64,000 nucleotides of DNA from the NCBI GenBank assembly GCA_050084515.1, contig CM114271.1, positions 15,934,001-15,998,000 of the forward strand, given 5' to 3'. The position numbers and the translations under genes are program-made. The number at the start of each line of letters is the position of its first letter. Position 1 is the stretch's first letter. The DNA is from Blasia pusilla. Taxonomy: Eukaryota. A model generated the notes under the pieces. It was not told where the DNA came from and made no database searches. It saw nothing but the letters and a program-made list of their open reading frames with translations. This document shows positions 10,121-54,866 of the stretch, in pieces.

Positions 10121-10206
10121 AGCGTCTTAGAGATATATATTGTGATAGGTAGGGATAGATGGTTATCGAGAGTTAGAGGGATCTAACCACCAGCTAGGGG
10201 GGCGAT

Positions 10207-11081
<875 letters not shown>

Positions 11082-12779
11082 AAGTTCATAGGAGCATCAA
11101 AGCTTGTCTGGAATCCATGATCTGTGTTAGTGGACAAGATACGCAGACACCGTGGAAGCCTTCTTGCTTTTTTCACGAAGATCCTAAGGAAGAGCAATCA
11201 GCCATAAGGGAAGTGCTTTTAGGAATTCCTATATAATTTTATATTTGGCACATGCGGAAAGTTTAGCTCCGAAAACTCCATCAACAAGGGAGATGCCCCA
11301 TTACCAAGGTGGATATGAATCAAGACCTTAGTCAAATTATGCACACGCAATATCTCAATATGTGCCATTCTCTGGAAAACTAAAGTTCATCCTAAATAAT
11401 AAATGCCTATCCAGATCCTCAATAAGTGTCAATGAACTTTGATCGTCCACAAGTATGTTATTTCTGTGCCGTATTTTGTGAAATACTACGTTAGTAACTA
11501 GCACCCAAAATTAGGGTCATAGGTGAAGGCATTAAGAATTGAAGCCAAATATGCCCAAGATACAAATGTTGCATGCCCAATTGAAAGATGGCATGCCAAT
11601 TTGAAGACACATCTAACATTAAGCATGCCAACCAATGGAACAAGGAAGATTATTTGGAGATTGAAATATTGACCAATGGAATTGAGAGTATCTTTTGGTA
11701 CATGGCACTCTTGAAGGTGGAGGAAGGGTCATGAATAAGCCAAGCAAGGTTGCATGGAAACATATAGCCGTGTCTAGTCTAGGAAATGCCCAACAATTTC
11801 CATGTCTTGGTTTTTTTTTATAGCCTGGTGACCCATATGGTCTTGGGATGTGGGAACGTGTGCGGGTTTAGATTAAGGGAGGTGGTTAGGAATCGAATGG
11901 GTGTGTAGGATATGAGCCCTTGTCTGGCCCTCATCAAGCCCGCGCTAGTCACAAAACGGGGGTCAAGAATGGGTGACAGGTTTTTGGATTGGGTTTGGGC
12001 TATCCCAGCCCGGATCTCCGTCGTGGGTAGGGCGAGCTCCAAGGTTGCACGAAAATGTACATGCCACCCGCATCGAAGCCCGCCCCCTGAGGGCCGGAGT
12101 TTGTCGAGCGTGTAGCGGGCACCCAAGCTGGCCAAGGCCAAGCCCGGATTGGTTTTGGGGGGGCGGGCCGCGAGCATCCCGGCCTACACGAAATGTCTCT
12201 CACATCTTATTTTGACGTAGGTAGAGTTATCTCGCGTCGACGACATAGAGAGTCAGCAGGTTTTTTGGGTGTAACTTTGTCCCAAGATGTCGGATGAGGT
12301 TGGCGACAAGTTTGTTGTGTCAGGAACGTCGTTTATGGCGATTTCCCAATTTTGGTTTTAGTCCGGCATGTGACCTGCTCGGTCAATGGTCACCCAATAA
12401 CCTATGCATGCGGGTTACCGTTGGGAGGGCTATTTTTGCGAAAAGAGCCTTTTGGCTCTTCCCAAGGGTATAAGAGTGAAGAAGATGGCTTTCCCAAGCC
12501 ATCTTTCTCATGTTGAGCCTTAGGAGCGCCTCTCTTGCATAGATGTGTGTGGGTGTATAGGAGTTAGGGTGCTAACATCCAAATTCCCTTATAGTAGAGA
12601 ATGGATATTGTTCGATATGCCGATGTAGATTCAAGAGTGGAGTTTTAGGCCGGGTGAGCCGTTTTTACCACTCTTGATTTTACATGAGAAAGATGCGAGG
12701 GGGTAGGGAATTCATTGGTTGCAGATAGGTAAGCAAGTTTCCTTGGTGGGGAGACCCTAGAGACGCGTATGTGACGTTT

Positions 12780-13704: not shown

Positions 13705-16704
13705 TTTAGTGAAAAGTGTAGGGGCAAGAATTCACGAGTGTGTTTCCGACATGTGAACGGCGAGTGTCGGGAAAGTTGGAAAGGAGAGAAATCAACTTTA
13801 GGTCATGTAGCTGCCTCTCTCAAATGTGCGCGGCCGTAGGCTAGGATACAGGCTAGGATGCGACTAGGGTTAGGTCACGGGCAAGGGATTGGAGGATTTT
13901 GGAGCACTGAGCGAGGATTGGAGGGCCGTGAAGTCGGGAGTCGGGAGTTGCAAGCCGGGGAGAAGACGTTTGGAGAGCAGGGTCGCGAGGTAAGAGGTAG
14001 GAGACGGAGTCCAGAGAGAGAGGATCGGTTGGGGCTGCGCATAGGGCACCATGCTCTAGGACACGGAAAGTGTGTGGGTGGGAAGGGGCCTATTAGGGAG
14101 GCCTGCGGGCCTGGCCCATAGAGTTGCGGGCTCCCCCCCGCCGCATTTAGACCCCCAAAGGTAGACGTGGTTGAGTGCGGACGTGGTAGGCAAGCTGGAT
14201 ATGGTTGGGGCTAGGGTTGATGTAGTAGGGCATGTGGGACGTGGTTTGCAAGGCAGACGTGGTCTGGTGGGCGGACAAGGTTGGGGAACGAGATGACATG
14301 GTAGAGCAAGGAGCTTGACGTGGTTGGTTCACATTACCAGGTTGAGGGGGTTGGACGTGATTGAGTTGAGTTATGTAGTGGGAGAGAGTTTTTGGGGACT
14401 AGATGTATCGCGAGCGTCGATGGGATTCAAAACAGGAGTTTTTTTGGTTATTTTGAGTCGCATGGGGATCGCCGTGATAGTCCTTCACCCATTGTGGATG
14501 CGAGGGTTGTGATGGAGACACACACACACCGATGTTGATGGAAGGTTTGACGTGTTGGTCGAGGAGAGTGTCGTGTTGTGGAGGTTGCCACACCACATGG
14601 AGGAGTGCGTGTTGAGGATGATCATGTTACCCATTCGAGTCCCTCTTCCCACACTTATCTTGTGTGATTGAGAGTGTTGGACATCGGGTAGTTGTTGGTG
14701 CTAGATGGGTGTAGTGATGGTCACAAGTGTAGACTCCTTTCATGTGTAGCATGTTGGTGGATATACGGTGGTTTCCGAGTAGGGGTCACGTGTATGATTC
14801 GAGAGTGTAAGTAGTTTAGGTGAGTTAGTGTGAAGGTCATGGTGAGTCCAAGTGTTGAGCGTGCGTGAGGTCGGGTGTGTTATCACGGGATATGCATTAG
14901 CGTAGGTGAGCTAGTGAGGAGTGTGGGACACTCTCGGTGAGTCTGAGTGCTTGTGTGGGTAAGATAGGGTTGACATCACGGCGTTCTTCCATGGTTTGGA
15001 AGAATGGGGTAGTACGAGTAGTGGTAGTGGAGTGACACGGAGTGGTGTGAGGTATGGAGGGGTTTTGAATGAGGAACCACCCCGACTCCCATCCGTGGCT
15101 GGATCGTCATCACTAGACATCAGGTTTGGTGACGAGATTGCACGTAGGGATGATGATACGTGGAGAGAGATGGACGACATGGGCCACTGTGGCATGCATC
15201 ATTTCTTGGATGCGGTAGGCACCATAGATCTTGACAATTTCATCTAGGAGTTTGACACATGGTGCGACTTCCAGGAGATACGGACCCCTACGCGATTCAA
15301 CCCTTTTATGGCATGGAAGGGGTTGTTCCAACACCTGAACGGGCCGCCGATGAATGATAACATGTAGTTTTGATGTCTATACTCTATAGAGATCAATGCC
15401 TCAAGGATGTATTGGGCTCCAAGGTATGTATCCACTAGTGGCCGCGAGGCGTATGATGGGATAGTGAGAGTGGAGAGATCTTCACCATCAACCCGGGGAC
15501 TAGATGGAGAGGATGGCAGTGAGAGTGGTGAGGTGGCAGAGACCTGTCGTGGTAAAGGACCACCGAGTTTCAATCCTATAGTGGAGTTCTTCCGATCGTT
15601 GGGGAGGAGCTACTAGGGCGTGCGGACCGACAAGTTGAAGAATCTACATGATTTTCAGCAGAGATCGGGTGAGAGTCTGAGAGAGGTGTTCACGCGCATG
15701 AGGAGGCTGATAATTGCTACTTATGGAGTGATTGAGGCACAATCAGTCCAGTATTGGTACGGGGTTTTGGATCAAGAGCTGTGGAGGAGATGTCGTGCGA
15801 ATCCACATCGTCATACAACATACATCGCTGACATACCATACTCACATACATACATAACATAGACGAGAGTATCCACAAACACAAGTGTACCACAACTCAG
15901 CAAGGCGCTTCTTTCCCAACCGACCGCGCACCAGATTCACACCTCCAACATAGGCCACAAGCCACGAACATCCACGGCTGAGTACACAATCAGCCCTAAC
16001 CAGATCCTACTGATCTACAATCGACGCTACCATCGATCTACTCCAGTTCTTTGAGTGAAATCCGTGAAAGACCTACTGTCATAAAACACGTATAAAATCA
16101 CATACAATCGAGCCAAACCCACTCCACGATGGAAGAATCTAGGTCGAAGCTTGCGGGAAACACCATAGCCAAGAGCTCTACTCACTACCAAGGCTAACTC
16201 CCAACGCAACAGGCTCAACTCAAAGAACTGACTGTTCTTTGAGGGCACTCCACCTTATATCCTCCAACCTAAGAGCGGGCCCTACTGGGAAAGTCACCCC
16301 CAACTGAGTAACCCCCAACCCTACGTATGGAACCGCATCTCTACCAAGCCACTACGGTCCTACATAAGGAATGGCCTCTACTAGCACACCATACTCTACG
16401 ACATAATCCGTATGGTCATGACAGCTGTCGTGCGAATCCACATCGTCATACAACATACATCGCTGACATACCATACTCACATACATACATAACATAGATG
16501 AGAGTATCCACAAACACAAGTGTACCACAACTCGCCCCCCTAACTGGCGGTTAGGTCCCTCTAACTCCCAAGTAGCCCTATACATCTACTACATGCTATA
16601 CACCTTCTTTGGTGCCCGAATCAGAAGGCCGGGTGCTAGGTTGCCCCATCGTTAGTCGCACATCTGTAATCCATTTCATGCAAAGATCAAGTTATCTACC
16701 TCTC

Positions 16705-19700
16705 CTAAGTACATCGAGGACAAACCCACCTTCCACTAGGAACAACATCCATACGTGGAGTCAAACACATCATGTGCCAACCCCTAGAACACCGATCACA
16801 CACCAACATACGGGCTGCGTTACCAGCAGATCCACACAACATGCACCTCAAGCTACCACGCATCATGGCTAAGCTTGGGTCAACAGTACCATCCACATTT
16901 GGAAGATGACATGGCGCACAATTACGCACATGGTCCTTCCAAAAAACTCCATCACGACCCTCCAACATGAGAACTCCAGAAGCTAACACCTCGCGCACTC
17001 GTAAAATAGTGAGGCCTACCGTCACATCCAACGTTGTCGGTGCAATCTGCTGCAAATAGACATAGTCCCCCACATGGAACCTAAGAATCGATGGTCGATA
17101 ACCTCCACCTTGAATGGTTGCATACCGCAACGTATCCCTGTGTTGAGCAATGGCAATATTCTCAAAGGCTGTTGGCATAACTCTCCAAAGAGCTCCGCCC
17201 GCTGAGAACACACCCTCATCCACATCTCTGGGTCATCAAGGTTCACGACCTCACTAGACTCCCGACGAATTGCTGCTGGCAAGTCTGGATCTCTGCCATA
17301 TAACACAAAATAAGGTGAGACGGAAGCCAAGGATGCTTGGCGACTGAACCTATACCCCATGGCTAACCATGGCAACTGAACATCCCAGTCTCCAAGATGC
17401 CCTTCAGAGGCCATACTTGCGCAATGCCCTCTTCACCGCCTGAACCACACGCTCGGCCAAACCATCCCCTCGGATGATCTCGAGATGTGGTCCGATGATC
17501 AATCAACGCCTTGTCACACAAGACCTAAAACTCACCCTGAAACTCTGTACCCTGGTCGGTCAGCACTTCAGCTGGTGCACCAAAATGAGTAAGCACTCTA
17601 TCCAAAAATGCATACGCCGTTCCCTCACTTGCCTTGTCCGGTAATGCCACCAACTCAATCCACTTGGAGAAGTACTCCACCATCACCAACACATATCGAT
17701 GATGTAAATGCAATCAACGATAACGGTCCCCAAAGTCCACACTCCAACGGTAACCCAACCCCATAATAGGCAAAGGGTGTAATTGTGGTGTAGGGGCATT
17801 AAATGATGCCCTCACCCGGTCACAAACCATACAACGTGACACCAAGCTGCACTGAGTATGCATGCCACGCCACCAATAATAGCCAAGGAGTAAGCTATAT
17901 GCGTGACGCTTTACCCCAAAATGTCCCAACTCCTCATGGGCATGTCGCACAATGCGCTCTCTCGAGCCAAATGTGGCACTACTCGTACTCTACCATCCTC
18001 CCACACGCGGAGAATATGTGTTCCCTCCAATCGATACCTCTTAGCACGTTGAAGAACACGGTCTCGCTCCTTGGCACTCACTATGCCTGGCACCCTCTTG
18101 GTCCGTAGGAACTCCAACACCAACGCATCATCATGAATATCACGCTGATCCGCACCACCATCTCCAACCTTAGGATATGAAGGTGGCCATCTACCCTCGA
18201 CTAGAGTAAGATATCATGTGGTCCTCCATACTAGAGTCCACCTAACCAACATAAAAGGTGGATGCATGCCAACTGGCACCATCTCCTCATCAACCTCGCC
18301 ATGCCATCTAGCCCAGTTGTATCCTCTTGGCTAGTACATGGGTTCCTACTCAACCCATCAAAGATCAAGGTTGGCAACCTGTGTCTATGTACCACCGGAA
18401 GTCATACTCTGTAAGATAAGAGCCCACCGTGCAAGCTTCCTGTAATCTTGTCCGACTCCATCAACCACTTGAGCGGTTGGTGATCAGATAACAAGGGTAA
18501 ATTGGGTGCCAAACAAGTAACACCTAAAGTGTGCCCCACCACCACACTCTTGCCAAGCACTCTCCCTCATATGAACTATAGCGCGACTCCGCTGCATTAT
18601 TCGAACAACTTGCATAGGCCACCACAAACTCCATGTGCTCATCATCATGTTGTGTCAACACCGCTCCAAGTCCCAACCTACTCCAATCAGTGTGTAACTC
18701 AAATGGGCGCCCTCTGATAGGTCTCCTCAAGATAGGCGCCGCCACCAACTGGGCCTTAAGCTCCACAAAAGCTCTCTTCTGATCATCTCCCCAGTGCCAC
18801 TCTTGATCTGATTTCAGCAATTGGTTCAAAGGCTTTGCCATAGCACTAAATCCTTTCACATACCTCCGATAGTAGTTCGCCAATCCCATGAATGCTCGAA
18901 CTCTACTCACATCTACCGGACGTGGAATAAGTGCAATAGCCTCCACCTTTGCTTGCTGAACTCCCAAACCACCTGGATAGATCACATGACCCAAGTACTT
19001 AACATCCTCATGGAAGAACTTACACTTTCCTGGATGCAAACGTAGACCATGAGCTTTCAACCGCTCAAACACCATCTGCAAATGTATCTGATGCTCCTCC
19101 ACCGTGTTACTGAACACCAAGATATCATCAATGTAACACCGAACAAAATCCAACCCTGCTAGGATCCTGTCCATCACTCTTTGAAACTCGGCAGGTGCAT
19201 TCTTCAACCCAAAGGGTAAGAATTTCCAGTGGTACAAACAATCCTTGCGATGAGAGTTGACACCCCAGAATGTTGTCTTGGCCTTGTCACTCTCCCGAAT
19301 CAGCAATTGATGGTATCCTGCCCGAAGATCCAAAGTACTGAAAATCTTTGCCTATCCCACCACATCAAAGATCTCCTCAGGTGTAGGCATGACATACCTA
19401 TCGGCCTTGGTTTGCCGATTGATAGGACGATAATCTTCACACATCCTTGATTGGTTGTTGCCATGCATATCCTTTTTGGCAGGCATGACAGTGGCTGATG
19501 CATACTCTCCATGCAACAACTCCACTAATCCAACCTCCAAAAGGTCCAACGTCCTACTCTGAATCAAGTCCCTCTCCATATCACTATATCGGTAGGGACG
19601 ACGGAAGATTGGCGTATCACTAGCCAAATCAATCCGTATACCGGGTCCAACCAGAGAACCCAACTCCTTCATGCTAAAGGCAAAACAACTCCTATAAGCA

Positions 19701-22700
19701 CGTAGGAACTGTGTCAAGCGTCGTTTCTCACCTCCCATAAGCTTGGGCCCAAGTAATGGCTCCCAAGTCTCCTCCACTGGCACACTAGAGGGAGAGGGCG
19801 ATGCCATTGGTCGCTCATAACCCCCTCACAAGATGGTACACCCTTAGCTACACCATCATCGAGCAAATAACTCCTCCACCAAAGATGAGCAACCAACTCC
19901 ACATGCCCAACCATTACATCCCATTTACTCCAAGGATGCAAAATACTACTCTCCTCGCCTTGGCCGATGCCTCTACCGCCCCGGTAGCCATCGAGCTCAT
20001 TACAAGGGGTGGAAGACCCACAGACATAGTCCAAAGTCGATTTGCTCGGCCATACCAAGACTCAAAATCCAAGTCAAACAATTCAGGTCCATGGCCTGAC
20101 CCAACACATGACGTCGTGAAGCCTCAGAAATAGAAGCAACCGTTGTCACACCAGTAGCAAATCCCATCGCACGCTCTCTCTCATCAGTGTTAGGCTCCAC
20201 CAATCCGCACATGAGAATCCCATACAAGCTCGGACCACCTTCCCTATAGGCATGTGACGAGGAAAACTCACAAATGTGGGTAGTGCAATCCTAGGTGGCC
20301 CCACGGTTCACCACCGCCATGGGTGACCGATCAATAACCCTCACCACTTGAGAAAGTCGCCAAAGATCAAGATACTATCCTTTGTAAGGCGAGGATCGCC
20401 GACTTTGCATCATATGCTCGACGAGAACCTCCTAGGCAACAAGTTTGTCCACCACAAGCGTGGGCGATGTGCACGTGAGCCAACTCGCATTTGCATCCAA
20501 CAACACCGCTGGTCCAATCCAAGACCGCACCTCATGAACACTCGCCATCATCCACGTCCGAGTGTCACCCAACAATGGAACATTCTCCAGAATGTAAGCT
20601 AGAGCACGTGCCTGATGAACCTGAAGATGTCGTAACACCCGTAACATCTCCCAAAACAATCGAGACCTAGGGTCATGTAATCCGTCACCATGACCAGCAC
20701 GTGTATGACCTTGACATGGCCATCCAGCAATCACCAAATCCACAAGACCAACCCTCTCAAGGTCCTGCGCCCCCAACAATGCAATGTGTGATGGTAAAGC
20801 TTTTGGTACCCACGAATAGCGATGGCGACAACAACTCAGGATATCTCATCAAGCGACCAATATGTCGGGATGAGACTCTCTGGGCCGTCTCATCTCGCTC
20901 CACATACACGTATCTCCGCACAAGAATACCGGCCTGCAACACTGTAGCCAAACCAGTGCTAATCCCACCAAAGAGATCTAACACACAAATGCCCTCCGTC
21001 GGATACTGCCATACAATGGGTGTAGTATCCAAAGGGGATAACCCAACTGGACCAGAAGTAGGAATCCGCCGTGGGGCCTCCTCTTCCTCGTGAGGTATAA
21101 TGACCTCACACCAAGCCTTGCACTAGGCGATCGCCTCCCTGCCGTAGTGCACCGCCTGAACTCCAAAGTGGCACATCCAACGATGAGGATGCCATTGCTG
21201 CAAAAATAGGGACCTCCTCTACCTCCTCATGCATGGGAGAATCCATAGCGAGAAACATTACCCTCAAAAAGTCTCGTGGCCAAGTGACTACTCCACTAAA
21301 ACCAGCCATAGATGCTAACATTGTTGGGAAGACCCTCTGGTCGAACCCAGAAATAAATCTCACAGAACTTGGCTCATACGTCCATCCCGGATTGCCAACC
21401 AGGTCTCAGTAAGACGCTATCTCGATCCCAATAATCCATTTGAAAACCCATCGGGTACAATCGCTCCTCCAACTAGTACATCATACGACTCGGTGATGTG
21501 ACTACATGAGATACTCCCAACCGGGAGCTATCGATCGCATGATCTGGTCTCAATCATGTCAGAAAACTTTTCCCATGTCATGAATTGAGACCTATCATTG
21601 GCTCCTCCAAGTGATGTTTGAATCTGGAATGGGCAAGGCTCAAGCTCGACCTCCGAATACCCAAACCAATACATGCCGCCTTTCCCAACATCAAGGTTGG
21701 GCACCGAGTCTAACAAGACTCTATCTGGTCTATACACTGTCCTATAGGACTCACCAATCGGAAGATCCCACTCGGTTGTCCAACATACATACACCAGGTA
21801 TAAGCCTCTCACGATCAATGGTGGCCGGGTTGGTAATGCATCCATCTTCGCCGCCGCCGCTAAGTAGCACGGTACTCAATGCTACACGACATAGAGGGTC
21901 GCTCCACCGCAACATCCTCATCCACCTCAACACGTGTAGAATAACATCCCCACGTTCACACAATGTGGTCGCTAGCTGAAATCAGAGCTAAGTCAACTCC
22001 TAAAGCCATCACTCCGTGGCGAAAACAATGGGGATCCCAACACTGAAGTTGCCATCCGCAATACTGCACTGGATGTTGCATCCGTGTCTACTACACGCGA
22101 TGTAGATGCCTCAGTCCCCACTATCGGCTCAATAGGCTGCGTAGGAACCATGGATGGAGTCCTAAGCACCTCAGACAACAAGAATGATGGGAAGCCTAGC
22201 TCGCCTCCCGGCCTCACCCCTCTGTGGGTCCAACTCCACAAGTAGGACCACGTGGCTCGACGCTCGAGTGGCTCCTCTCAGAATAGCAGATTGATGCCTC
22301 AACTTTTGTCTTTGCACTCGCCATACAAGAGAGATCATCCCCTCCATAAGAGGTGGAAGCTCCTGCTCCCGAACCTGATCTATGTTGGATACCAACCATA
22401 GTAGCCAACTTCTGCTCCAACTGCTCAATCCTAGCAGCCATAGCTGACTCTGTCGTAGTGGTAGGGGTAGCCACCGTAGGCTCTCCAACCACCTGGTCCA
22501 CCTCTACCACCCCTACCACCTCTACCACCTCGACCTCTCAGAGCTACTCCACCACGGCCGCGGCCTGATCTCAACTATGGATGAAGATCAAAGCAACGCT
22601 CTCGAGGATGATCTGGTCTCCCGCAATGATCACACTGAGTTGGGGCCGATCGAGGCCCATCCTCCAAAGTCCATCTCCCATCCTCTTGGGGACAAAACTT

Positions 22701-23818
22701 CCTAACATGATCACCTCCACATGTCCAACATGATTGTCCTTGCTGGGGCAGCAAATGAAGGCAATGGTCTCTGCGCAAGTGTCCCTCTAGGACTTGGTCG
22801 AGGTCGCGTGTACCCCACGACTCCCCTACTACTACCACCACCACTACTACGAGGCGTGAGGTGGGGGCGGCCGAACACGAGAAGTAGTAGTTGTATCCCT
22901 CTGAATGCGGATGTCACCACTCTCTCCTTCACCATGTTAAGCTCAATCTTCTCGAGATAGAGCAAACACATGGGTCAATGTGGGTGAATCATCACTCATA
23001 AGAGTAGCATCACGCACCCTACTGGCGCAAATCTCTGTCCAAGATCCCATACCAAAATCGATCTGCTCGATCCTCGAGTCACACCTGGGTAATCGAAATC
23101 AAGCGTCGATATCAGTGTATGCCTCACGAAGACTCTCACTAGTCTTTCGCTCAAATTCTGAAGATTCCTCAACTTCTCCGTCTTCACTCCTCGATAGTTC
23201 TTCTTCAACCTCTTGAAGAACTCGCAACTGGGTGAACGATGGTGGGGCACTAGTACCTCCACTAGTACCCCCACTAGTACCTCCACTGGTACCCCCACTC
23301 CGGCTCGTACTCATACCACTCAACGTCAGGCTGGATGGCATAGTAGGAGCACTACTACCAATACCACCATGGGTGATAGACACATAGCCTGGAGACCAAT
23401 ATTGTCTCCATGCCTCAATCTCAGCAACATGGTCCTTCCTAAACTCATGGTAATCATCCATGGGTGGTCCTTCCAAGTGTTGAAACAACCCCTTCCAAGC
23501 CAAGAATGGTGTAAACAACGTGGCGTTCCGCAACATCTGCATATCACACCACGTATCAAACTCCTGCATGAAGTCCTCCAACTCAATGGTACCCACTGCA
23601 CCCGAGTATCTTCGTGGACCCTTCATGGCCCCATATCCACCGTCCATGTCCCAAATCAATGGAGCTGCAACACTCGATAACAACGTAGAAGACTCGGTGT
23701 TTGGAACACCCTCGTCCTCCTCTTCATCAACCGTCGGAAGTGGAAAAGGTAGCCGATACCTAAATCCACTCTGTGTGAAACCACCACTGTCCCCAACCAG
23801 ACCACCCGACAGCTCCGT
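16705..23818 (-). pseudogene. F3 polyprotein Gag-PR-C5 MTase-RT-RNaseH-IN-PHD (frameshifted)
   Basis: CWTCGGDHVRKFC, CDHCGRPDHPRERC; VLLDS; RT DLRAGY, PFGLKNA, YIDD (ORF 18524-19333); LHTDWS; AHEELGHFG/CMVC; VLTDQGTEF; PHD CMLC..CDRC..H..C..WVCPRC (16708-16845). Confidence 0.93.
20087..20984 (-). pseudogene. DNMT3-like C5 MTase domain (F3)
   Basis: VLDLFGGISTG, YVYVERDE, DLVIAGWPCQGH, YILENV, ERERAMGF, SRRHVLGQAMD. Confidence 0.9.
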
Positions 23819-26800
23819 GATGACCAACGCCGATGCCGCACCACCACCAAATTACCCAAGTGACGTCGATGTCGCTCTACTATTGTAGCTCTACTAGCTA
23901 TGGGTGTAGGCAACCTAACCTCTCATCACCACAAGAAGCCTCCCACGGTCTACTGGTCATCACTCCAGCCTCACTATTTGTAGCACACAGGAGTAACACT
24001 ACTCTGGAAATCAGCGTCAACCCTAACAATGGGCGCGCAAGCAAGAAGCACGATGGAGGGGATCCAAACACAGGAAGTCCAACGACAATCCTCCAATCGC
24101 AAATGGAAATCAAGGTAACACAATCCACCAAACGTGGTGCCCCCTGAATCCACAAAACCCACCACATAATTCTAATGCAATAGCTACTCCGCCGCGAGTC
24201 GATGACGTACTAGTCGAACTCGCAGCACCTGAAAATATCACCTGCATGGAGAGGCTACACCGTACTATGCTCTAGAGGTACATCAACCAAAAACCTGAGA
24301 TGCATAAAGCGCCTAACACATCTCCGAACAGCACCAAATGAGCTACAACAATGTGTACATTGGCATAGTTAAGAACTCAGCAGTTAAGCGTCCTCCAGGC
24401 AGAATAGCCCAAAGATGGGTGACCAGTTATGCAAAACTAAAATCCCAAATCCTGCAAAAATTTCCTCACGCCCAAGCAAGCAAGCAAGCTTGCTTGCTTG
24501 CTTGCTCCTTGCTCCTTACTCCGCCTCTCACGCCCACTCGCCCCGAGCTACCACGAGTTGCCTCGAGTTGCCTCGAGTTGCCTCAAAACGTCGAGAAATG
24601 CTCGAGACATGCCCCATTCGCCACGCTTCGCCATGCTTCACTATGGAGAGAGGCCCAACCAGGGCGTCCCCAATGGGATAGGCGTCTCCAACAATGAACG
24701 AGTCACCAACCAACCAGCCCCTTCGATCCGCTGTCCACCATAACCAGACCTTGAGCTAGTCCGCGAAATTTCGATCAAAAATTACTTCACAAATCCATGA
24801 CTGAAATTGAATCTGTTTCAACCAGAATTCAATTGACCACCATAGCTATCTCTCCACAAAAAATCAGCTACAACCGAGCTCTGTACCCCGAGCTAAAAAT
24901 CAAACAAACTTGTTGTCCATACACCTCCAGAATCGCAAATCCGACAGCGCTGCCGCCAAGTTTCATGCACGCAGAAATCCGCAACGCTCCACACACTCGA
25001 GCAAATAGATTCACAGGAGATCACAATATGAGTAGCAACAGGAACCTCTCACCCGATCTGGATGAACTTCAACAGAGCTCTCCACATCAGAAAACCGTCG
25101 AACACGAACCAGAATCTTCAATCCTTGATAACTTCCAACTCCCTTGACGAAATCCGGCGATCTAAAGCGCGTTGGAAAGCTCTCACCAAGGCGCTTCTTT
25201 CCCAACCAACCGCGCACCAGATTCACACCTCCAACATAGGCCACAAGCCACGAACATCCACGGCTGAGGACACAATCGCCCCCTAACAGATCCCTTCGAT
25301 CTACAATCGGCTACCATCGATCTACTCAGTTCTTTGAGTGAAATCCGTGAAAGACCTCTTTGTCATAAAACACGTATAAAATCACATACAATCGAGCCAA
25401 AAACCCACTCCACGATGGAAGAATCTAGGTCGAAGCTTATGGAAACACCATAGCCAAGAGCTCTACTCACTACCAAGGCTTACTCCCCCAACGAAACAGC
25501 TTAACTCAAAGAATCGATCGTTCTTTGAGGGCACTCCACCTTATATCCTCCAACCTAAGAGCGGGCCCTATTGGGAAAGTCACCCCCAACTGAGTAACCC
25601 CCAACCCTACGTATGGAACCGCATCTCTACCAAGAAACTACGGTCCTACATAAGGAATGGCCTCTACTAGCACACTATACTCTACGACATAATCCGTATG
25701 GTCATGACAGAGAGTTTGGGATGCGATGTTGCTTCACACGGCGAAGCCCACATTGAAGGTGGTCTTTGGGTTTTCTGAGCGGGTAGAGCTCAACATGAGT
25801 GAGGAGCAGGTGGTAACCATGGGGTGTTCATGGGAGTCAGCGGGTCCACGAGTAGGATAAGATCCATAGGTGCTCCAGCATGCACCAATACCACGGGCAA
25901 ATGGGCCCAAAGAGCACAGCGGGTATCGTGAGACGATGAGGCAACGGCCCGTACCGACATATATTACCCAGTAGGGACTACGGTTGGCTTGTTAGACGTG
26001 TGGTGGGCCACAATGGTAGAGGGACTGCCCACAACATGGGAGAGGGCCACGGGCACCTCCGATTGCTCAGGAGCCATAGAGGATGTCCCAACCACAGTTG
26101 CAATGTGATCATTATCACCGATATGGTCACACTAGGGATAGGTGTTATGATCTTTGCGGGGAGGTACGTCTAGAGGTAGGCAAAGGACTTGGGGGCGAGA
26201 GAGTTGGTGGAGATTGAGTAGTGGATGATTGTGGTGGTAGAGTGCCATCACCAATCACAGGAGATGGAGGACGTGCACCCGATGCAGCGCTCCTTACCCG
26301 CATCGATCAGTTGGAGCAGAGGATTGCTTCCATGACAATGATGCAGCTACATGAGGCTGCTACGGTGATGACTCGAGATGCTGCGAGAGTAATCGAGCCA
26401 TCAAGAGGTAGGGTTGAGATTGACCCACATGAGGGGACCGTGGGCGGCAGGACAGGGTTCCCGAGTCGTTCACATTGTCAGAGGTACTACATACATCGTC
26501 AATGGTGCCTCAATGACCGATAGTACCCATGGGTGAGGCAGGTGCATCAACATTATGAGGAGTTGGAGAGATGACTCCTATGCCGGCTCGAGAGGAGCCA
26601 ATGTCGACCATGTTGTTTGAGGTAGCCACTATGGTGAGCCACACTCCGTTGTTTTTCGCCATGGAGTTGGCGACGTTGGGAGTTGGACCAAGGGAGGTGT
26701 TCCGGTTGGCTGCCACGTTGTGTGAGCATGGAGAGGTGACTACCTTTCGTTTAGAGGTAGTTGAGGAGGTGGTGGACTTGCCCTCAGAGCAGGTGGTCGG

Positions 26801-29800
26801 GATGTCTCCCATTGAGTCATGGCATGCTACGGCGGCGGAGTTGGTAGATATGCTAGCTAGGCTAGCGATAGAGTGAGCCATGATCACACCAGGTGTGATG
26901 TTATTGGATAATCGAGCATGAGTGTTTTGTTGGGTTAGTCCCATATGTACGGTATACCACCCGCAGCGTGTCCTACTTGATTCGGGAGCACAAACCCTGA
27001 TATTAGGGAAGGCGGTGTGTTTGGCGTTGGGGTTATTGAAAGGTGACATCGAACGTTGTCCCTTTCAGATACAGACCTCTATTGGGGGCATATCATCCAC
27101 GTAGTACATGACTCGACAAGAGTTGGTGGTTAGACTTCAGCCAGAGCATGAGTCGGATAGTGCGATGGTGCGCACTTGGGCAATTACGACACTGGCACAC
27201 TCATATGATATGTTGGTAGGGAGTGCGGTGTTGTATCCCCTTGGGTTTATTCTGGATTTTTGGGAGGAGACGATTTCTTATTGGCCACGGTGGCGATCAC
27301 GTGATGGATGGGTGAGCCATCTGCCGATGTTGTTTGCAGGGAGTAGTGGTGGTCAACCACGTGAGGATACGGTGACCATGTTGGCAGCATTCACAAGTGG
27401 TGTTAGTTGATCATGAGGGTTCGGAGAGAGGAGCACACATGCGGAGCACATTCCCATAGTGGATAGTCCCACGAAAAGATATGCCAGGGTGGGTGTCTCT
27501 TCCCATGGTGTGGAGCTTCTTTATTGTTGTTAGGAACGAGCGTTGAGATGCGTGGAGTGTAGACAAGCTTTTGAGGCATGCATGGAGCCGTGCCTATGTT
27601 TGGAGCAGGATACGAGAGTGTTAGATCTCTTAATTTGGAGGGATCAACACGGCAGGTTGTTGTAGTGTTGCGGGGGTAATGGTACCGATCATGCTAGATG
27701 TATATATGATAGGAGATCATGTCGGGGACATATATGTGTGCTATCTGGAGTTGGGGGTATCCAACTGCCAGCTAGGGGGGCGGTTGTGGGGTTCTTTTGT
27801 ATATGCGTGAGTATATATATTTTATGTGTGGATCTATCCGTATGTTAGGGAAGATTGGTGTTGTATGGTGTGTAGACGTGACTAGCGAAGTGGGTTGTGT
27901 AGCGATGTGTATGCGCACGACAACTATCACATCTTATTTTGACGTAGGTAGAGTTTTATCGCGTCGACGACATAGAGAGTCAACGGGCTGTTTTGGTGTA
28001 ACTTTGTCTCGGGATGTGGAATGAGGTTGGCGACATGTTTGTTGTGTCAGAAATATCGTTTATGGAGATTTCCCTATTTTGGTTTTAGTCCGATATGTGG
28101 CCCGTTGAACAAGTCGATGGTCATCCGGTAACCTATGCATGCATGTTACTGTTAGGAGGGCAATTTGTGGGAGAAGAGCCTTTTGGCTCTTCCCAAGGAT
28201 GTAAGAGTGAGGAATATGGCTTTCCCAAGCCATCTTTCTCATGTTGAGCCTTAGGAGCGCCTCTCTTGCATAGATATGTGTGGGTGTATAGGAGTTAGGG
28301 TGCTAGCCTCTAGATTCCCTCATAGCAGAGGGTGGATGTTGTTTGATATGTCGATGTAGATTCAGGAGTGGAGTTTTAGGCCGGGTGAGCCAATTTTACT
28401 ACTCTTGATTTTGTTGTGGGGCTCCTTTGTATATGCGTGAGTATATTTTTTTTATGTGTGGATCTATCCGTATGTTGGGGAAGATCGGTGTCGTGTGGTA
28501 TGTAGATGTGACCAGCAATGTGGGTTGAGCAGCGATGTGTATGCGTACGACATGTCCGACGGACATAAGTCCACGGATATGGATTTTTACCATGTGCAAG
28601 CTTGAAGGCAATCCACGGAGTGATGACTATGGCCATAAAGAATGCAAAAGAAATTCTCGATTCCCATGTTGCGTTTGAAGATTTCCATGGCGTAAAATAT
28701 ATGAAGATGTTGAGTAAGTCCAAATGACAATTCTGGCACTCAATATGCAATTACAACTTGAAGAATGTTGCATGCACATTCCCAAATGCGCAAGAAAATA
28801 CCACATGCAAGCACCAAGTTAGTGTCCAACTAATTGCTACTTCAAAAGGAATGCACACAATTCACAAGTCTATGAAGCTTAATTGCATCTTGTTTACGCT
28901 TCAATTTTTTAAAATCTGGTTGGGCTATCGTGCGAGGGGAAGTGTCTCTTGCTATCTAGAGTCATCGAGGCATAAGTTCTATTATATCTTTAGCCAAATT
29001 TTGAACTACAGTTGGAAGCTTTCAAAGGCCTTGCTAAGTATCGAGAAGGTGACCTTTAGGAACTATCCAAGTCTAATTAACAGACCGTTGATGAACAAGA
29101 TTACATATTCCCTAATGACGAGAGAACCATTGAGGATGCTTAGAACTTGGCAAGGCCATCTGCCCTTAATATTGAAAATATGTTACAGAAGCTCATGAAA
29201 GTTATTGAAGCTTCTGACTCACACCAACTTGTGATTGACCATACCATACAACAAATGAAATCAGTTTATAAGTCCATTCTCACTTTGAAGGCAAGGAGTG
29301 ATGAGAATGTGCTCTCTACATCAATTGCAGTCGAATACCACTTGAAAGCTTTGTACCAATTAGGCTACTTGATAGGTAATTGAGACAAAGTGGAGTGGGT
29401 TGAAGCCTTACATAGTAATAGTAGGCGCAAACTGAACAACAACTATGAAATTATCATTGTTCAAACCCTGCCCCCTTTCCAACGAGAAGAAAGGGTCAAA
29501 TTCAAGGATATGCAAATAGAGGTAGATATGGCTACCATTGACATGGTTCTAGTTGAATTTCCTACAAACCATACATTATAAGCTTGTAGAAAAGTGATGG
29601 AAAATCCAAGTTGTTATACTCGATCATGAGTGGAAGGTCTTTTGATGAAAAATGTACATTCTTGAATTTTTCACCCATTAAAATTTGAGTATTCACCTCA
29701 TGTCCTTCAAATGCTCTTGGTTACTTGTGTGTTTTTCACCTACTCTATATTGGGAGTCTGTTTGGAACTACTACATCAATAATTGGATGCTCAAAGAAAA

Positions 29801-40500: not shown

Positions 40501-43500
40501 AGTTGAGGGCGAGCTACCATGGGGTACGGACGGAGAAGTTGCGGAGCATCCACGACTTCCAGAGGCGCCCGGTGAGAGTTTGCGTGAGGCTTACACTTGC
40601 TTGCGCCGGTTGATCAACGTCACTCAGGGGGTGATAGAGGCTCAGGCTATCCAGTCATGGTACGCGATGCTGGACCAGACCCTGCGGACACGGGTGCGGG
40701 AGGGGGTACTTCTTATGAACACCTCTGTCGTGCACATACATATCGCTACACGACATACATCGCTGGTCACATATACACCACATAACACCGATCTTCCCCA
40801 CACACGGGTCGATCCACACATGTAAAAAAAATCAACTCATAAATATACATGGAGATCACATGATCAGGTTACCCATTCGAGTCCCTTTTCCCGCACTTGT
40901 CGTGTGTGATTGAGAGTGTTGAGTATCAGGTAGTAGCTGGTACTAGGTGGATACAGTGATGGTGACGAGTATTATGTTCATGTGTAGCATGCTGGTGGAT
41001 ATATGACGGTTGTCGAGTAGGGGTCGCGTGTATGACTCGAGAGAGTGTCGCTAGGTTAGGTGAGTCAGTTGGGAGGCTCATGGTGAGCCCGAGTGTTGAG
41101 TGTGCGTGAGGCCGGGTATGTCATCACGGGATTGATGTTAGCATAGGTAAGCTAGTGAGGAGTGTGGGAGACTCTCGTTGAGTCTGAGGGCTTGAGCGGG
41201 TGAGAGAGGGTTTGTCATCACTGCGTCCTTCCAGTGTTCGGAAGAACGGGGTAGTGCAAGCAGTAGTAGTGGTGTGACACGGAGTTGAGTGAGATACGGC
41301 AGGGTTACCAATGAGGAGCTCCCTTTACATCCATCCGTGGCTGGATCGTCATCACTAGACATTGGGTCTGGTGACGAGATCGCAGACAGAGATAGTAGTA
41401 CTTGGTAGGAGATGGACGACATGGGCCATTGGGGCATGCGTCGTGTCTTGGGTGCAATGGACACCATCGACTTAGATAATTTTATCCAGGAGTTCGACAC
41501 GTGGTGCGACTTCCAGGAGATACGAACCCCGACACGGTTCAACCCTTTCATGGCATGGAAGGGGTTGTTCCAGCACTTGGAGGGTCCTCCGATGGATGAC
41601 TACATGGAGTTTCGATCACTATATTCAGTAGAGATCGATGCCTGGAGGATGTATTGGGCTCATTGGTATGTGTCCACTAGTGGTCGCGAGGCATATGATG
41701 GGATTGTGAGAGGAGAGAGACCCACACCATCAGCCCGGAGACTAGATGGAGAGGAGAGCAGTGATTTTCTTGAGAGTCGACGGGTCCATGAGCGACGGTG
41801 ACCCCAGAGGTGCCACAACGAGCACCAGTACCACGGGAGCGGGCCACTGTGCCCAGAGAGTAGGGCGGGTACCGTGAGCCTATGAGGCAACGATCCGTAC
41901 CTACATATGTTGCCTAGCAAGGACCGATGTGGTCTTGTTGGACGTGTGGAGGGGCCCATAGGCAGAGAGACTGCCCACAGCATGGGAGAGGACCACCAGC
42001 GCCCCGATTGGTTAGGAGCCACAGAGGATGGCCCCACCACAACACCATTGTGACTATTGCCACAAATATGGTCACACTAGGGATAGATGTTTTGACCTTC
42101 GCCGAGGGGCACGTCCAGAGGTAGGCCGAGGGCCTGGGGGCGGTCGTCCTGGAAGAGGTTGGGGAGTTCTTCCTGGACGTGGTGGTAGAGGACCACCACC
42201 AGCCAGAGGAGATGAAGTAAGAGCACCAGAGCCGACACTTCTCTCACGCATTGATCAGTTGGAGCAGAGAATTGCTGCCATGACGATGATGCAGCTTAGG
42301 GAAGGCACGGAGCTGCGAGCAGCTAGTGTGACTCCAACTTTTAGCTCTTACCCTGACCCGGGTGAGAATCTCTCCAGTATGGGATTTATGTGTAGTGCAG
42401 CCTAGGTTGAGGTTGCTGCAGTGGTGACTCAAGGTGTTGCGAGAGGCACCGAGCCATCGAGAGGTGGAGTTGAGATTGACCCACCAGAGGAGACTGATGG
42501 GCGGCAAGCCAGGGTTCCACAGTCATTCACATTGTCGGAGGCACTCCACACACCATCGATGGTGCCTCGACGACCAACGGTGCATACAGCTCAGGCACCT
42601 ACGTTGACGTCACGAGGAGTTAGAGTGATAACTCCTATGCCGGCTCGAGTGGAGTTAGTGTCGACCATAGTGTTGGAGGTGGCCACCAGAGTGAGTCAGA
42701 TTCCGCTATTTTCCGCCATAGAGTTGACGACGTTGGGAGTTGGACCAGCTGAGGTGTTCCGGCTGGCCGTGACGTTGTGTGAGCATGGAGAGATGATTGC
42801 TTCTTGTTCAAAGGTAGTTGAGGAGGTAGTGGACTTGCCCTCAGAGCCGGTGCTCGGAACGTTCCCCACAGAGTCATGGCATGGGGCGGCGGTGAAGTTG
42901 GTAGATATGCCAGCTCGACCGGCCATAGAGCGAGCAGTGGTGACACCTGGAGTAGTGTTACTGGATAACTAAGCTGGAGTATTTTTCTTGGTTAGTCCAA
43001 TGGGGACAGTATACCACCGGCAACACGTCCTACTTGATTCGGGAGCGCAACCCTTGATGTTAGGGAAGGTGGCGTGTTTAGCGTTGGGGTTACCGAAGGC
43101 CGACATTGAGCCTTATCCCTTCCAGATACAGACCTCGATTGGGGGCGTGTCACCCACGCAATATATGACTCGACAGGAGATAGTTGTTAGAGTCTAGCCA
43201 GAGCATGAGACGGATAGTGCTATGGTGCGCACACATGCGATTACGACACCAGCTCAGTCGTACGATGTGTTGGTGGGGAGTACAGTGTTATATCCCCTAG
43301 GATTCATGCTTGACTTATGGGAGGAGACCGTTGCTTATCGGCCATGATGGCGGTCAGGTGACGGCTGGATGAGTCAGTTACCCATGCAGTTTGCGGGACG
43401 AGGTGGTCGATCACGAGGCGATTCTGTGACCACGTTGGCGACTTTCACAGGTAGTATTAGCTGGCCAAGAGAAATGTTGGAGGGGAACACACATGCGGAG

Positions 43501-43761
43501 GATGTCCCAGTAGCGGATAGTCCCACGGAGAGACAGGCCATGGCAGGTGTCTCTTCCCATCTTGGCAAGACCTCTTCACCATTGTGGGATACGACTAGAG
43601 AGCTACAGAGGAGTGCCGACGACCTTGTGAGGCAGGCGTGGAGTCATGCTTTTATCCCGGAGCAGCAAGAGTCACCTGGCGATCGGGCTCTTGGAGTGGA
43701 GACGTTGACCCCATTGGATACCAAACCCGTTGTGTGGCAGTGCCCAGAGGAGGGTGTTAGG

Positions 43762-44675
43762 GTGTTAGATCTCTTCGGAGGGATTAGCACCGGATTGGCT
43801 GCAGTATTGTAGGCGGGCATACGGGTGCATCAGTACCTTTATGTGGAGAGAGATGAGACCGCGCGGCGAGTATCATTACGTCAAGTGGCGAGATTGGTCC
43901 AGAGGTATCTTGAGTTGTTTCCGGTATCTGCAGTACGGGGATATCAACATACTCTACCCGCCGAGATCTCTTTGGTGGGGGCGCAGGATCTGGATAGAGT
44001 TGGCACCATTCATTTGGTGATTGCTGGATGGCCATGTCAGGGTCATTCATCAGCTGGTCGAGGATTTGGATTGCAGGATCCGAGGTCAGGGATGTTTTGG
44101 GAGATGCCGTGAGTAGTACGACACTTGCAGGAGAGTCAGACATGTTCTCCAACGTACATCTTGGAGAACGTGCCGTTGTTGGGAGACACTCGTGCACGTG
44201 TGATGACGAGTGTGTATCAGGTGAGGTCCTGGTTGGGACCTGTTGTGTTATTAGATGCGGCGAGAGTTGGATCACGTGCCCATCGTCCACGACTATGGTG
44301 GACGAACCTGATACCATCAGAGGTACTGAGTCAAGCATACGATGGAGTCCAAAGAGCACCACATCTCACAATGGATGCTATTTTGGGCTCAGGGCATCGA
44401 TCTCAGGTGGTGACACGGGATGATAGACCACCATTGGCCATGGCCAATAGGGTTGGGGAGTTGAGGGCAGCCTTACCTACGTTGGTGAGCTTCCCAGCAT
44501 CCCATGCCTTTCGTCAGGGAGGGCCAGGCATGATTTGGGATGAGGTGACCGGAGCATTGGAGGAGCCTACAACATATGAGGGCAAGCGCGCCATGGGGTT
44601 TGATACCGGTACTACGGCAGTGCCAGGCATGACTGAGGCATCCCGGAGACAGGTGTTGGGATAGGCAATGGACCT
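43762..44675 (+). pseudogene. Best-preserved DNMT3-like C5 MTase domain (in-frame stops only)
   Basis: VLDLFGGISTG, YLYVERDE, IHLVIAGWPCQGHS, YILENV, SRAHRPRLWWTNL, EGKRAMGF, SRRQVLG*AMD. Confidence 0.92.
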
Positions 44676-44760
44676 CAACTGTCTCACATGGATAGTCAAC
44701 CTAGGTATGGCTGAGCAGAGATGGATGCGAGTGTCATCCATGCCGTCACGTCCACGAGTT

Positions 44761-45968
44761 GGACCATTGCCTACAGGGTCTGTACAGGCATTGGCTAGAG
44801 GTGAGACGAGGAGAGATAGGCACCCATGGACTTCCTAGGATGTCGTTTGAGTAGAGAGTATGAAGGCGGCTAGAGTAGCACATGTTCATTTTTCGGATGT
44901 GGAGCATGGTTTAGGAGGTCAGAGTGGAGTGGCTGTTGCGGAGGTGGCTAGGGTTGCTACATAGCAACCAAAGCCGGAGGTTGCGTCCTCTCAGAGTGAG
45001 GTCACGATGGAGACTTGGGAGCCTGTGATAGGTCTCAAGTTGATAGGAGGAGAGCGACCACGAGTTCATAGGTTTCTGAGAGGGCATGTCAGTTGTTTTG
45101 CCTTTAGTATGAGAGACTTGGGTACGCTGAAGGGTCCCGAGATACGGATTGAGTTGGCTAGTGATACCCCGATCCGCGCCCATCGGACCATTGCCTATAG
45201 GTTGTGTACAGGCATTGGCTAGGGGCAAGACGAGGAGAGATAGGAACCCATGTACTTCCTTGGATGTCGTTTGAGTAGAGAGTGCGAAGGCGGCTAGAGT
45301 AGCACATGTTCATTTTTTGGATGTGGATCATGGTTTAGGAGGTCAGAGTGGAGTGGCTGTTGCGGAGGTGGCTAGGGTTGCTACATAGCAACCAAAGCTG
45401 GAGGTTGCGTCCTCTCAGAGTGAGGTCACGATGGAGACTTGGGAGCCTGTGATAGGTCTCAAGTTGATACGAGGAGAGCGACGTCGAGTTCATAGGTTTC
45501 TGAGAGGGCATGTCAGTTGTTTTGCCTTTAGTATGAGAGACTTGGGTACGCTGAAGGGTCCCGAGATACGGATTGAGTTGGCTAGTGATACGCCGATCCG
45601 CGCCCATCAGACCATTGCCTATAGGTTGTGTACAGGCATTGGCTAGGGGCAAGACGAGGAGAGATAGGAACCCATGTACTTCCTCGGATGTCGTTTGAGT
45701 AGAAAGTGCGAAGGCGGCTAGAGTAGCACATGTTCATTTTTCGGATGTGGAGCATGGTTTAGGAGGTCAGAGTGGAGTGGCTGTTGCGGAGGTGGCTAGG
45801 GTTGCTACATAGCAACCAAAGCTGGAGGTTGCGTCCTCTCAGAGTGAGGCCACGATGGAGACTTGGGAGCCTGTGATAGGTCTCAAGTTGATAGGAGGAG
45901 AGCGACGGCGAGTTCATAGGTTTCTGAGAGAGCATGTCAGTTGTTTTGCCTTTAGTATGAGAGACTTG
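44761..45968 (+). repeat. Tandem triplication, 424-bp unit (MTase-RT linker)
   Basis: METWEPVIGLKL ORFs start at 45007, 45431 and 45855, period 424; the third unit is truncated. Confidence 0.95.
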
Positions 45969-53939: not shown

Positions 53940-54866
53940 TCAGGTCCATCGCCTGATCCAAGACATGACGTCGTGATGCCTCTGATACCGAAGGTATTAT
54001 TGTCACTCCTGGGGGGAATCCCATTGCTTGCTCTTGCTCATCGCCGTTGGGCTCCATCAACCTCTATTCTTGGTCATCTCAAACCAAGCCAGACCCAGCC
54101 TCCTTGAATGCATAGGAATTAAGCGAAGCGGGAAAACTCACCAATGTGGGAAAGGCTACCTATGGCATGCCAATATTTTTGACCACAGTCAACGCCGGTC
54201 AATCATTGTGCCTCACTGCTTGTGATCAACGGCCCGGATCCAATATAGAATCCACCAACAAATTGGAGGGACGCTCCACTCTCGCATAAGCCCTCTATAA
54301 CACCTCATGTGGCATCAAGTTGGTTCACCATACACGCGGGCGATGTGTTGTAGAACCTACACTCTCCGCATCCAACAACATTGTCGAGCCGATCCATGCG
54401 CGTACCTGATGTGTACTCGTCACCACGTGGAACCTTGAATCGCCCAAAATCGGCACATTCTCCATAATGTTTGATGGAGAATGAGACTGATGCTCTTGCA
54501 AAGTGTCGCAAGATCCGCATCATCTCCCAAAACAACCTGGACCGAGTGTCAACTAACCTGCTACCTCGTCCACCACTCGATTGGCCCTGACACGGCCAAA
54601 CAACAATGACCAAATCTGTGGCCCCTACCCGCTCCAAGTCCTGCGCCCCCAACAATGAAACATCCCGCGGTAGGAAACTCTAGTATCCCTGGACAGTGCA
54701 CGCAGACAACAAGTCGGGAAAATGGACGCGTAACTGCGCCACATAGTGAAGTGAAGCACGCCTCGCAACATCATCAATCTCCACATATAGGTACTGTTGC
54801 ACACGTACTTATGCTTGCAAAACAACAGCTAACCCAATGTTGATCCCTCCAAAGAGATCCAACACC
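53940..54866 (-). pseudogene. C5 MTase domain (F1-c)
   Basis: VLDLFGGINIG, DLVIVVWPCQG, MENV, EQEQAMGFP, SRRHVLDQAMD. Confidence 0.86.

Follow-up and report, generated by a model that had tools for sequence, protein, structure and literature searches.

Junction anatomy suggests that a DDE-integrase retroelement is cut at an internal site rather than at the tips of its linear DNA copy

Textbook long terminal repeat (LTR) elements and retroviruses integrate a linear complementary DNA (cDNA) with the integrase sites at its tips, and retroviral circles count as dead ends, although an exception has been debated for foamy virus. In IS3/IS30-type insertion sequences, a DDE enzyme acts on abutted inverted ends that are separated by a short spacer. 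Here, we analyzed a stretch of 64,000 nucleotides (nt) of Blasia pusilla DNA (NCBI GenBank assembly GCA_050084515.1, contig CM114271.1, positions 15,934,001 to 15,998,000 of the forward strand; "the window" below, numbered from its first letter) that contains copies of a Ty3/gypsy retrotransposon with abutted ends inside the integrated element. A sequence-only reading of the window had flagged positions 16417–16432, where the right end of the element meets its left end across 2 nt (CA-NN-TG), as resembling a circle junction. Unlike this element, the IS3/IS30-type insertion sequences are DNA transposons, with a transient junction that comes from donor flanking DNA and no reverse transcription.

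The repeat layout of the element is already published for an algal relative, KnitGypsy-Dnmt3 of Klebsormidium nitens, whose repeats are called "DIRS-like" in a 2018 figure legend (de Mendoza et al. 2018, PMC5890265, Fig. 4). A further likeness is the Gypsy-type pol with an inserted Dnmt3-like C5-methyltransferase (PMC5890265). The main text of that paper gives no junction sequence, spacer, target duplication, mechanism, or positions of a primer-binding site (PBS) or polypurine tract; its supplements were outside our reach and may hold more. The same split-repeat topology, A1-B1-A2-B2, in which an internal copy of the right end (B) is followed by an internal copy of the left end (A), is described for PAT, Ngaro, and TOC elements (PMC4157794). 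Those elements carry a tyrosine recombinase and no DDE integrase, whereas the element studied here has an rve domain with a D,D35E triad, TG...CA ends, and 4-bp target duplications.

Two further systems bear on the junction and on priming. The integrase of prototype foamy virus cuts a palindromic CA-AT-TG LTR-LTR junction in vitro, on both strands after CA (Delelis et al. 2005, PMC1180852). Cleavage needs the palindrome and leaves cohesive 5′ AT overhangs, and integration costs only 2 nt (PMC1180852). CA and TG are 2 nt apart, as they are here (PMC1180852), and the 4-nt spacing that the sequence-only reading had quoted as usual for retroviral 2-LTR circles is not universal. The foamy virus junction arises from joined cDNA ends and is absent from the provirus, whereas the junction described below lies inside the integrated element, with the joined ends at a separate place, the A2/B2 boundary. 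Similar junction cleavage by HIV-1 integrase has reportedly been described in one paper. Self-priming as in Tf1 is also a prediction for Tcn1 elements of plants (Neumann et al. 2019, PMC6317226), and Tf1/sushi and Tcn1 elements resemble ours in having no tRNA-type PBS and a sequence after the repeat that could pair with the presumed 5′ transcript end (PMC6317226). They differ in having ordinary LTRs, and in place of the chromodomain of chromoviruses the present element has a PHD finger. In the searchable literature (supplements not covered), we found no account of how the junction is built, of its 2-nt rule, of target duplications, of a self-priming site, or of where the cDNA ends are joined. 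That literature likewise yielded no mention of protein relatives in bryophytes, no junction description or DDE-element mechanism, whether for split direct repeats with an integrase or for DNMT3-bearing Gypsy elements of Marchantia, and no use of the name "KnitGypsy" beyond PMC5890265.

An internal CA-NN-TG junction with a 2-nt spacer

All four junction strings quoted in the sequence-only reading are present on the (+) strand: CATGACA-GC-TGTCGTG (16417–16432), CACGACA-AC-TATCAC (27916–27930), ATGACA-AT-TATTGTG (50972–50986), and GTGACA-GT-TGTCATG (62433–62447). A search of both strands of the window with the degenerate pattern CAYRAYANNTRTCAY returned exactly these 4 sites, compared with 0.11 expected by chance, and none of 100 shuffles reached 4. 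When the window was compared with itself and five copies were aligned over their 3′ regions, each junction proved to be the boundary between the internal right-end copy (B1) and the internal left-end copy (A2). The ends are indeed abutted across 2 nt, as had been read; the boundary, labeled "A1/B2" in that reading, is B1/A2 in the usual split-repeat nomenclature.

Specifically, the flagged site belongs to copy M2 (15791–25709, minus strand), in which, on the element strand, B1 ends with CACGACA (16432–16426), followed by the spacer GC (16425–16424) and the start of A2, TGTCATG (16423–16417). The site at 27916–27930 is the junction of copy P2 (12198–28552, plus strand), which is interrupted by the nested M2. 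The remaining two lie in minus-strand copies, namely M1 (50338–60990; CACAATA-AT-TGTCAT on the element strand, 50972–50986) and M3 (CATGACA-AC-TGTCAC, 62433–62447), the latter with its right end at 61794 and its 5′ part beyond the window edge. In total, four of the five B1/A2 boundaries in the window are intact, all with a 2-nt spacer (GC, AC, AC, and AT on the element strand), and the fifth, the boundary region of copy P1 at 10205–10345 (plus strand), has lost 13 nt across the junction (10331/10332). The window copies fall into three subfamilies whose A repeats cannot be aligned past the first ~7 nt; the 2-nt spacing is therefore conserved and not simply inherited from one recent copy.

Scanning metagenome contigs with an alignment of ten relatives gave 80 loci, of which 75 were retained after leaving out duplicates (L001, L029, L041, L049, and L080). 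The sequence-only reading had turned on a spacer of constant length, and this held: as in the 4 of 4 intact window junctions, the spacer was exactly 2 nt in 25 of the 25 distinct metagenome loci with a readable B1/A2 boundary. In an unbiased scan of the 75 loci for spacers of 0 to 8 nt, a spacer of 2 nt was matched 26 times in 23 loci, compared with about 1 match per shuffle. A spacer of 5 nt was matched 15 times, mostly by a sub-terminal repeat within B and not by B/A junctions, and all other spacers were at chance level. The spacer letters among the 26 matches were GC (8), AC (7), AT (6), GT (4), and GA (1). The junction is thereby confirmed as real and family-wide.

Over the last ~30 nt of B in metagenome loci, the terminal motif CGTCACGACA is repeated in tandem two or three times with CTACA in between (e.g., L021 8850–8881 and L032 3405–3439), which may be extra integrase-binding sites.

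Repeat layout, target duplications, and coding content

The layout of the integrated element is A1 - PBS - gag/pol - polypurine G-run - B1 - NN - A2 - B2. In the window copies, A is about 490–530 nt and B about 107–131 nt long; A starts with TGTCAY and B ends with CRCGACA, which form an inverted pair, and the element ends are TG...CA. The split direct repeats A1...B1A2B2 are a trait of PAT/Ngaro-like elements of the DIRS order. A classical LTR layout was not found: the left end consists of A only, the right end consists of A joined directly to B (A/B), and the polypurine tract precedes the internal B1 instead of a terminal repeat. The integrated element is, in other words, a circular permutation of LTR-internal-LTR. 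Metagenome relatives share the layout, with B1 starting about 60 nt past the end of pol, directly after the G-run.

In M2, all on the minus strand, the left terminal repeat A1 spans 25181–25709 and starts with TGTCATG; B1 (107 nt, 16426–16532) begins right after the G-run and ends with CACGACA; A2 spans 15898–16423; and the right terminal repeat, B2, spans 15791–15897. A long (GT)n microsatellite (10890–11050) has grown inside B2 of copy P1.

We examined 17 end pairs from window copies and related loci for target duplications. Exact 4-bp duplications flank six of them, i.e., M2 (GAGA, 15787–15790 and 25710–25713), P2 (TGTC, 12194–12197 and 28553–28556), L016, L021, L003, and L043; nine more match at 3 of 4 positions, one matches at 2 of 4 (L010), and one is a miss (L015, with A at an odd distance). 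Copy M1, which has lost most of B1, is flanked by ACTT and AGTT (50334–50337 and 60991–60994). The duplications enclose the whole A1...B2 unit, not its parts. Duplications of 4 bp point to a DDE integrase with a 4-bp staggered target cut and speak against a tyrosine recombinase.

A different arrangement, A-(rearranged internal region)-B without the internal junction, is found in copy M4 (40726–46847, minus strand), which is inserted in copy P3 with target duplications CCTC/TCTC and whose empty site is visible in copies P1 and M1. Its single A and single B are minus-oriented, and its internal part (40860–45970) is plus-oriented and truncated in the reverse transcriptase (RT); M4 is therefore an inverted or rearranged derivative. 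At the RT start inside this element lies a tandem repeat (44761–45970) with a 424-bp unit in about 3 copies of 94–98% identity. In addition, one metagenome locus (L054, 6061–6524, minus strand) is a solo A/B unit with flanks AAGT/AAAT that resembles an ordinary TG...CA solo LTR; it may be a direct product of cutting both junctions or of later deletion between repeats.

Nested, decayed copies of this one kind of retroelement crowd the 64-kb window on both strands. Pieces of open reading frames (ORFs) from the window copies match RT, gypsy-type RNase H, a C-5 cytosine DNA methylase, the H2C2 zinc domain of integrases, and a PHD finger. We classify the element as a Ty3/gypsy retrotransposon, now decayed, with gag, protease, C5-DNA-methyltransferase, RT/RNase H, DDE integrase, and PHD finger; in M2 and in intact protein relatives alike, pol runs from RT through RNase H to integrase, and the RT_RNaseH domains are of the gypsy type. 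The decayed pol of M2 spans 16708–20797 (minus strand), with domain matches to the C5-DNA methylase (20797–20042), RT/RNase H (19771–18542), the integrase zinc domain and core (17965–17471), and the integrase C-terminus with the PHD finger (17466–16708). Its gag region (22575–23851, minus strand) has a CCHC-like knuckle and no Pfam match, and was assigned by position and similarity between copies.

When the best RT/RNase H frame (18524–19351, minus strand) was used to query a protein collection, 428 relatives were recovered, 120 of which were listed. The closest named relatives among the matches listed are from liverworts (Marchantia polymorpha, 83%; Calypogeia fissa, 80%), and more remote ones are from Klebsormidium nitens (54–55% over RT/RNase H) and Closterium (47%), so that the best matches listed, being liverwort and not Klebsormidium, set the element apart from KnitGypsy-Dnmt3. 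With liverwort proteins as the closest matches listed, it seems that land plants, too, harbor the clade of methylase-bearing gypsy elements known from Klebsormidium. The traits of that clade are present here: a C5 cytosine methyltransferase inside a Gypsy pol combined with DIRS-like repeats. A DNA_methylase match lies at 20432–20845 in the window, and PF00145 is also found in relatives. The methyltransferase sits between protease and RT, and the PHD finger follows the integrase (20042–20797 on the (−) strand, 43348–44664 on the (+) strand, and other copies).

The rve, H2C2, PHD, and DNA_methylase domains co-occur in many of the 120 listed relatives, and a rescan of three intact ones (P0006, P0023, and P0041) recovered protease, methylase, RT, RNase H, H2C2, rve, and PHD. 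The integrase triad D735, D795, and E830 (D,D35E, spacing 35) is invariant in 10 of 10 aligned relatives; the window integrase is decayed, yet its region aligns at 69% with relatives. No tyrosine recombinase (PF00589) appeared in domain scans of the window copies and intact relatives, nor in the Pfam lists of the 120 relatives. Among 10 loci examined, none was an intact DNA copy.

GC skew (4-kb bins across the whole window) tracks copy orientation, from about +0.15 to +0.23 for plus-strand and from −0.13 to −0.27 for minus-strand copies. The sense strand of the element is G-rich and C-poor, and differences between copies are mostly transitions.

Putative reverse-transcription signals and the A2/B2 joint

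No tRNA-type PBS (TGG...) was found after A1 or after the junction in any subfamily. Instead, A1 is followed by 12–15 nt whose reverse complement occurs inside A, at a site (site S) that lies 130–185 nt before the end of A. The complementarity is 15/15 in M1, 14/15 in P3, 12/12 in P2, and 10/10 in M2 among the window copies, and 13/13 in L031, 12/13 in L021, 11/12 in L030, and 10/11 in L016 among the metagenome loci; the pair of L020 shows a compensating change. This complementarity covaries in four subfamilies that are unrelated in sequence, and S is preceded by a TATA box at a distance of about 30 nt. Specifically, S begins 31 nt after the conserved TATAAAAGG in the L031-type family and, in M2, 32 nt after GATATAAGG. 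For the M1 type, reading by eye places a GTATAC about 28 nt ahead of S, and no clear TATA was seen upstream of S in the P2 type. The start of A, another candidate for the PBS, was rejected, with only about 7 nt of it conserved between subfamilies.

These signals can be located in the copies as follows. P2 (plus strand) has its PBS at 12684–12695, site S at 12500–12511 and 28231–28242, and its polypurine tract at 27773–27782. In M1 (minus strand), the corresponding positions are 60467–60481, 60640–60654 and 50629–50643, and 51010–51020, and the tract of M3 (minus strand) lies at 62568–62578. In M2 (minus strand), site S (AGTTCTTTGA) lies in A2 at 16220–16229, with a TATA at 16253–16261 and the TATA-like motif of A1 at 25539–25547, and the polypurine tract TTAGGGGGGCG (16533–16543) is immediately upstream of B1, an arrangement shared by its relatives. 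The PBS motif of M2, TCAAAGAACT (25328–25337), is unusual in that it lies, together with about 145 nt of leader, within A1, and a copy of it is found in A2 (16045–16054).

The spacing strongly suggests that transcription starts at S inside A, about 30 nt after the TATA. A would then very probably hold the promoter, the transcript start, and R-U5, with the PBS following A. The complementarity of the first 12–15 nt after A to S argues that the RNA would prime its own reverse transcription in a Tf1-like manner. At the other end, every locus that has a B1 shows the G-run abutting the start of B, and plus-strand synthesis very probably starts at the G-run just before B. A PBS after A and a polypurine tract before B imply that the repeat made by reverse transcription would be B-NN-A.

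M2 offers a view of how the edge of A may be set. Compared with its relatives, it has 160 nt more in each A copy, including the PBS and leader (25181–25340 and 15898–16056, minus strand), and a conserved hairpin of the leader contains, in its loop, the point where this extension stops; as judged from joints in host-genome contigs, the short form of A without the extension prevails among genomic copies. Such an extension of both A copies would be expected if the 3′ edge of A is set by the start of minus-strand synthesis and that start once lay further downstream.

Because the PBS follows A and the polypurine tract precedes B, the putative joined cDNA ends, i.e., the classical circle junction, are at the A2/B2 boundary (about 15897/15898 in M2). 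The flagged site, about 0.5 kb away, is thus not a classical circle junction, contrary to the resemblance drawn in the sequence-only reading. In 17 loci of one family (L044 included; where a locus had no A1, we used the family consensus to define the end of A), the A2/B2 joint was exact in 7, lacked 2 nt in 4, lacked 1–2 nt in 2, had 1 extra nt in 3, and had 14 extra and 6 missing nt in 1. The templated boundaries, in comparison, were constant (G-run/B1 in 17 loci and A1/PBS in 7 loci). In L016 and L021, the element's own A1 and B1 show full ends, yet the joint lacks 2 nt. End joining would be expected to produce such variation in joint length between copies. At least 11 variants of the joint, some with filler letters, are present in host-genome contigs, but they support this weakly, as the alignments had short sides and were made at 85% likeness.

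We also compared the contigs of 4 sequencing runs with M2. The family is very abundant in the contigs of the best DNA run. The joints found were either A-to-B or those of a deleted derivative (17095 to 23561), and nothing in the contigs of the 4 runs set a circle or tandem form apart from the internal junction. In the contigs of two runs guessed to be RNA, the PHD region is joined directly to gag (17095/23561) with 6465 nt skipped, i.e., an internally deleted derivative.

Proposed route of integration and its alternatives

The junction anatomy of this DDE element suggests a cut at an internal site rather than at the tips of the linear DNA copy. The explanation we favor, and hold to be reasonably probable, is that the site is a germ-line fused copy of both DDE-integrase attachment sites, 2 bp apart and internal, which the integrase would cut, the cDNA ends being joined. 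The mechanism, a well-supported inference, would run as follows. The linear cDNA would be [B-NN-A]-internal-[B-NN-A], whose ends (B-start and A-end) would be without TG/CA. The integrase would cut both strands after CA at the junction in the left repeat, with the cuts 2 nt apart; cleavage by integrase with this stagger is inferred by analogy. The cut would leave recessed CA-3′OH ends with 5′ dinucleotide overhangs, like those of 3′-processed retroviral DNA, which would be a normal strand-transfer substrate. The termini made by RT would be joined, A-end to B-start, either before the cut (as a 2-LTR-type circle) or after insertion (by repair of the free ends). The predicted outcome, A-internal-B-NN-A/B, is exactly what is observed. 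The uncut junction would be transcribed within the U3-equivalent, and both ends would be re-created in the next cycle. The earlier proposal that the junction can template both ends is therefore supported by the anatomy, as the junction lies in the part expected to be transcribed and copied into both repeats.

Several observations weigh against this route. The window and metagenome copies are old (A1/A2 identity of 81–93%; no ORF longer than 385 aa). The alternative permutation, A/B-NN-A-internal-B, was found in 0 loci compared with 25 canonical ones, only 4–5 non-canonical loci having a readable upstream part. A symmetric circle should open at either junction, and one permutation is seen, so that either the cut precedes the joining or something else breaks the symmetry. 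We speculate that the left repeat is double-stranded long before the right one and would be cut first, with the free termini joined later. Besides M4, at least 10 distinct loci are of the form A-internal-B and lack NN-A2-B2, with target duplications such as TACA/TACA, TTTT/TTTT, and AGAT/AGAC; these copies may be direct products of cutting both junctions or, equally, later B1-B2 deletions. In M2, B1 and B2 are identical at 106 of 107 positions but A1 and A2 at only 93%, a gap that the model does not predict and for which gene conversion is one possible cause. Identity between A copies is uninformative in the metagenome family (84–91% within an element compared with 85–89% to the best other copy); in the M1 family of the window, A1 and A2 are 88% identical compared with 79–85% between copies. 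The heterogeneity of the A2/B2 joint could be partly slippage in an AT-rich context. Likewise, the pairing of site S with the PBS could form a leader hairpin with another role, the transcript start being placed from TATA spacing only.

Among the alternatives, ordinary end processing survives best, although we regard it as unlikely. RT would build a linear TG...CA(+NN) cDNA, for example by a template jump from the A-end to B, and the junction would be a template that is never cut. RT jumps that add or lose 1–2 nt would fit the heterogeneity of the A2/B2 joint, and such jumps would yield one permutation only, which matches the observed asymmetry. However, B-NN must still be removed from the left end, either by cutting the junction or by a second, hitherto unrecognized start of plus-strand synthesis; B has no purine run at its 3′ end, and no element is known to behave in this way.

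Less probable still, to the point that we would be surprised by it, is templating in the style of DIRS/Ngaro elements without LTR-type duplication, in which an RNA would run from inside A1 to inside B2 and the B1-NN-A2 segment would act as a splint that restores the tips. This would yield a closed circle with two junctions opened by the integrase and is essentially the model of the sequence-only reading. The repeat layout is the same as in PAT, Ngaro, and TOC elements (PMC4157794; see also the legend of Fig. 4c in PMC5890265), and the junction does hold both ends. Such templating, however, neither needs nor explains why a PBS-like motif directly follows A and a G-run directly precedes B. If RNA templated the A2/B2 joint in each cycle, its stability should match that of other parts of the element, yet the joint varies. 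In addition, we found no fixed differences specific to A1 or A2 (2 biased columns of about 340, one of which is a polymorphic site in more copies), and the 160-nt extension of both A copies of M2 fits a repeat edge that is defined by the primer.

A non-functional origin (a chance palindrome, adjacent insertions, or post-insertion rearrangement of a normal LTR element) might be entertained in a window that is a dense pile of nested, decayed copies, but it is ruled out for practical purposes by the 4 matches compared with 0.11 expected by chance, the recurrence of layout and spacing in three window subfamilies and in 25/25 loci elsewhere, the target duplications that enclose the whole A1...B2 unit and not its parts, and the layout reported for Klebsormidium.

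In practical terms, standard LTR finders will mis-annotate elements of this kind, and their solo A/B units will pass for ordinary solo LTRs. Mechanistically, the integrase sites here are internal and fused, and the integrated copy is a circular permutation of the expected reverse-transcription product. If the route we favor is true, this would be a natural system in which the integrase must cut an internal palindrome and the joining of cDNA ends is part of the life cycle, i.e., a natural counterpart of the old, abandoned idea of retroviral circles as integration precursors. The question of a circular versus a linear precursor would then be directly testable in an element of the plant lineage. 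The route could also explain the rise of a DIRS-like repeat layout without a tyrosine recombinase. The family carries its own DNA methyltransferase and PHD finger and has protein relatives in liverworts; we suggest, tentatively and with some doubt, that a lineage running from charophyte algae to bryophytes moved its integrase sites from the LTR tips inward and would depend on end-joined (2-LTR-circle-type) cDNA, or on an equivalent route of cutting and rejoining, for its normal integration substrate.

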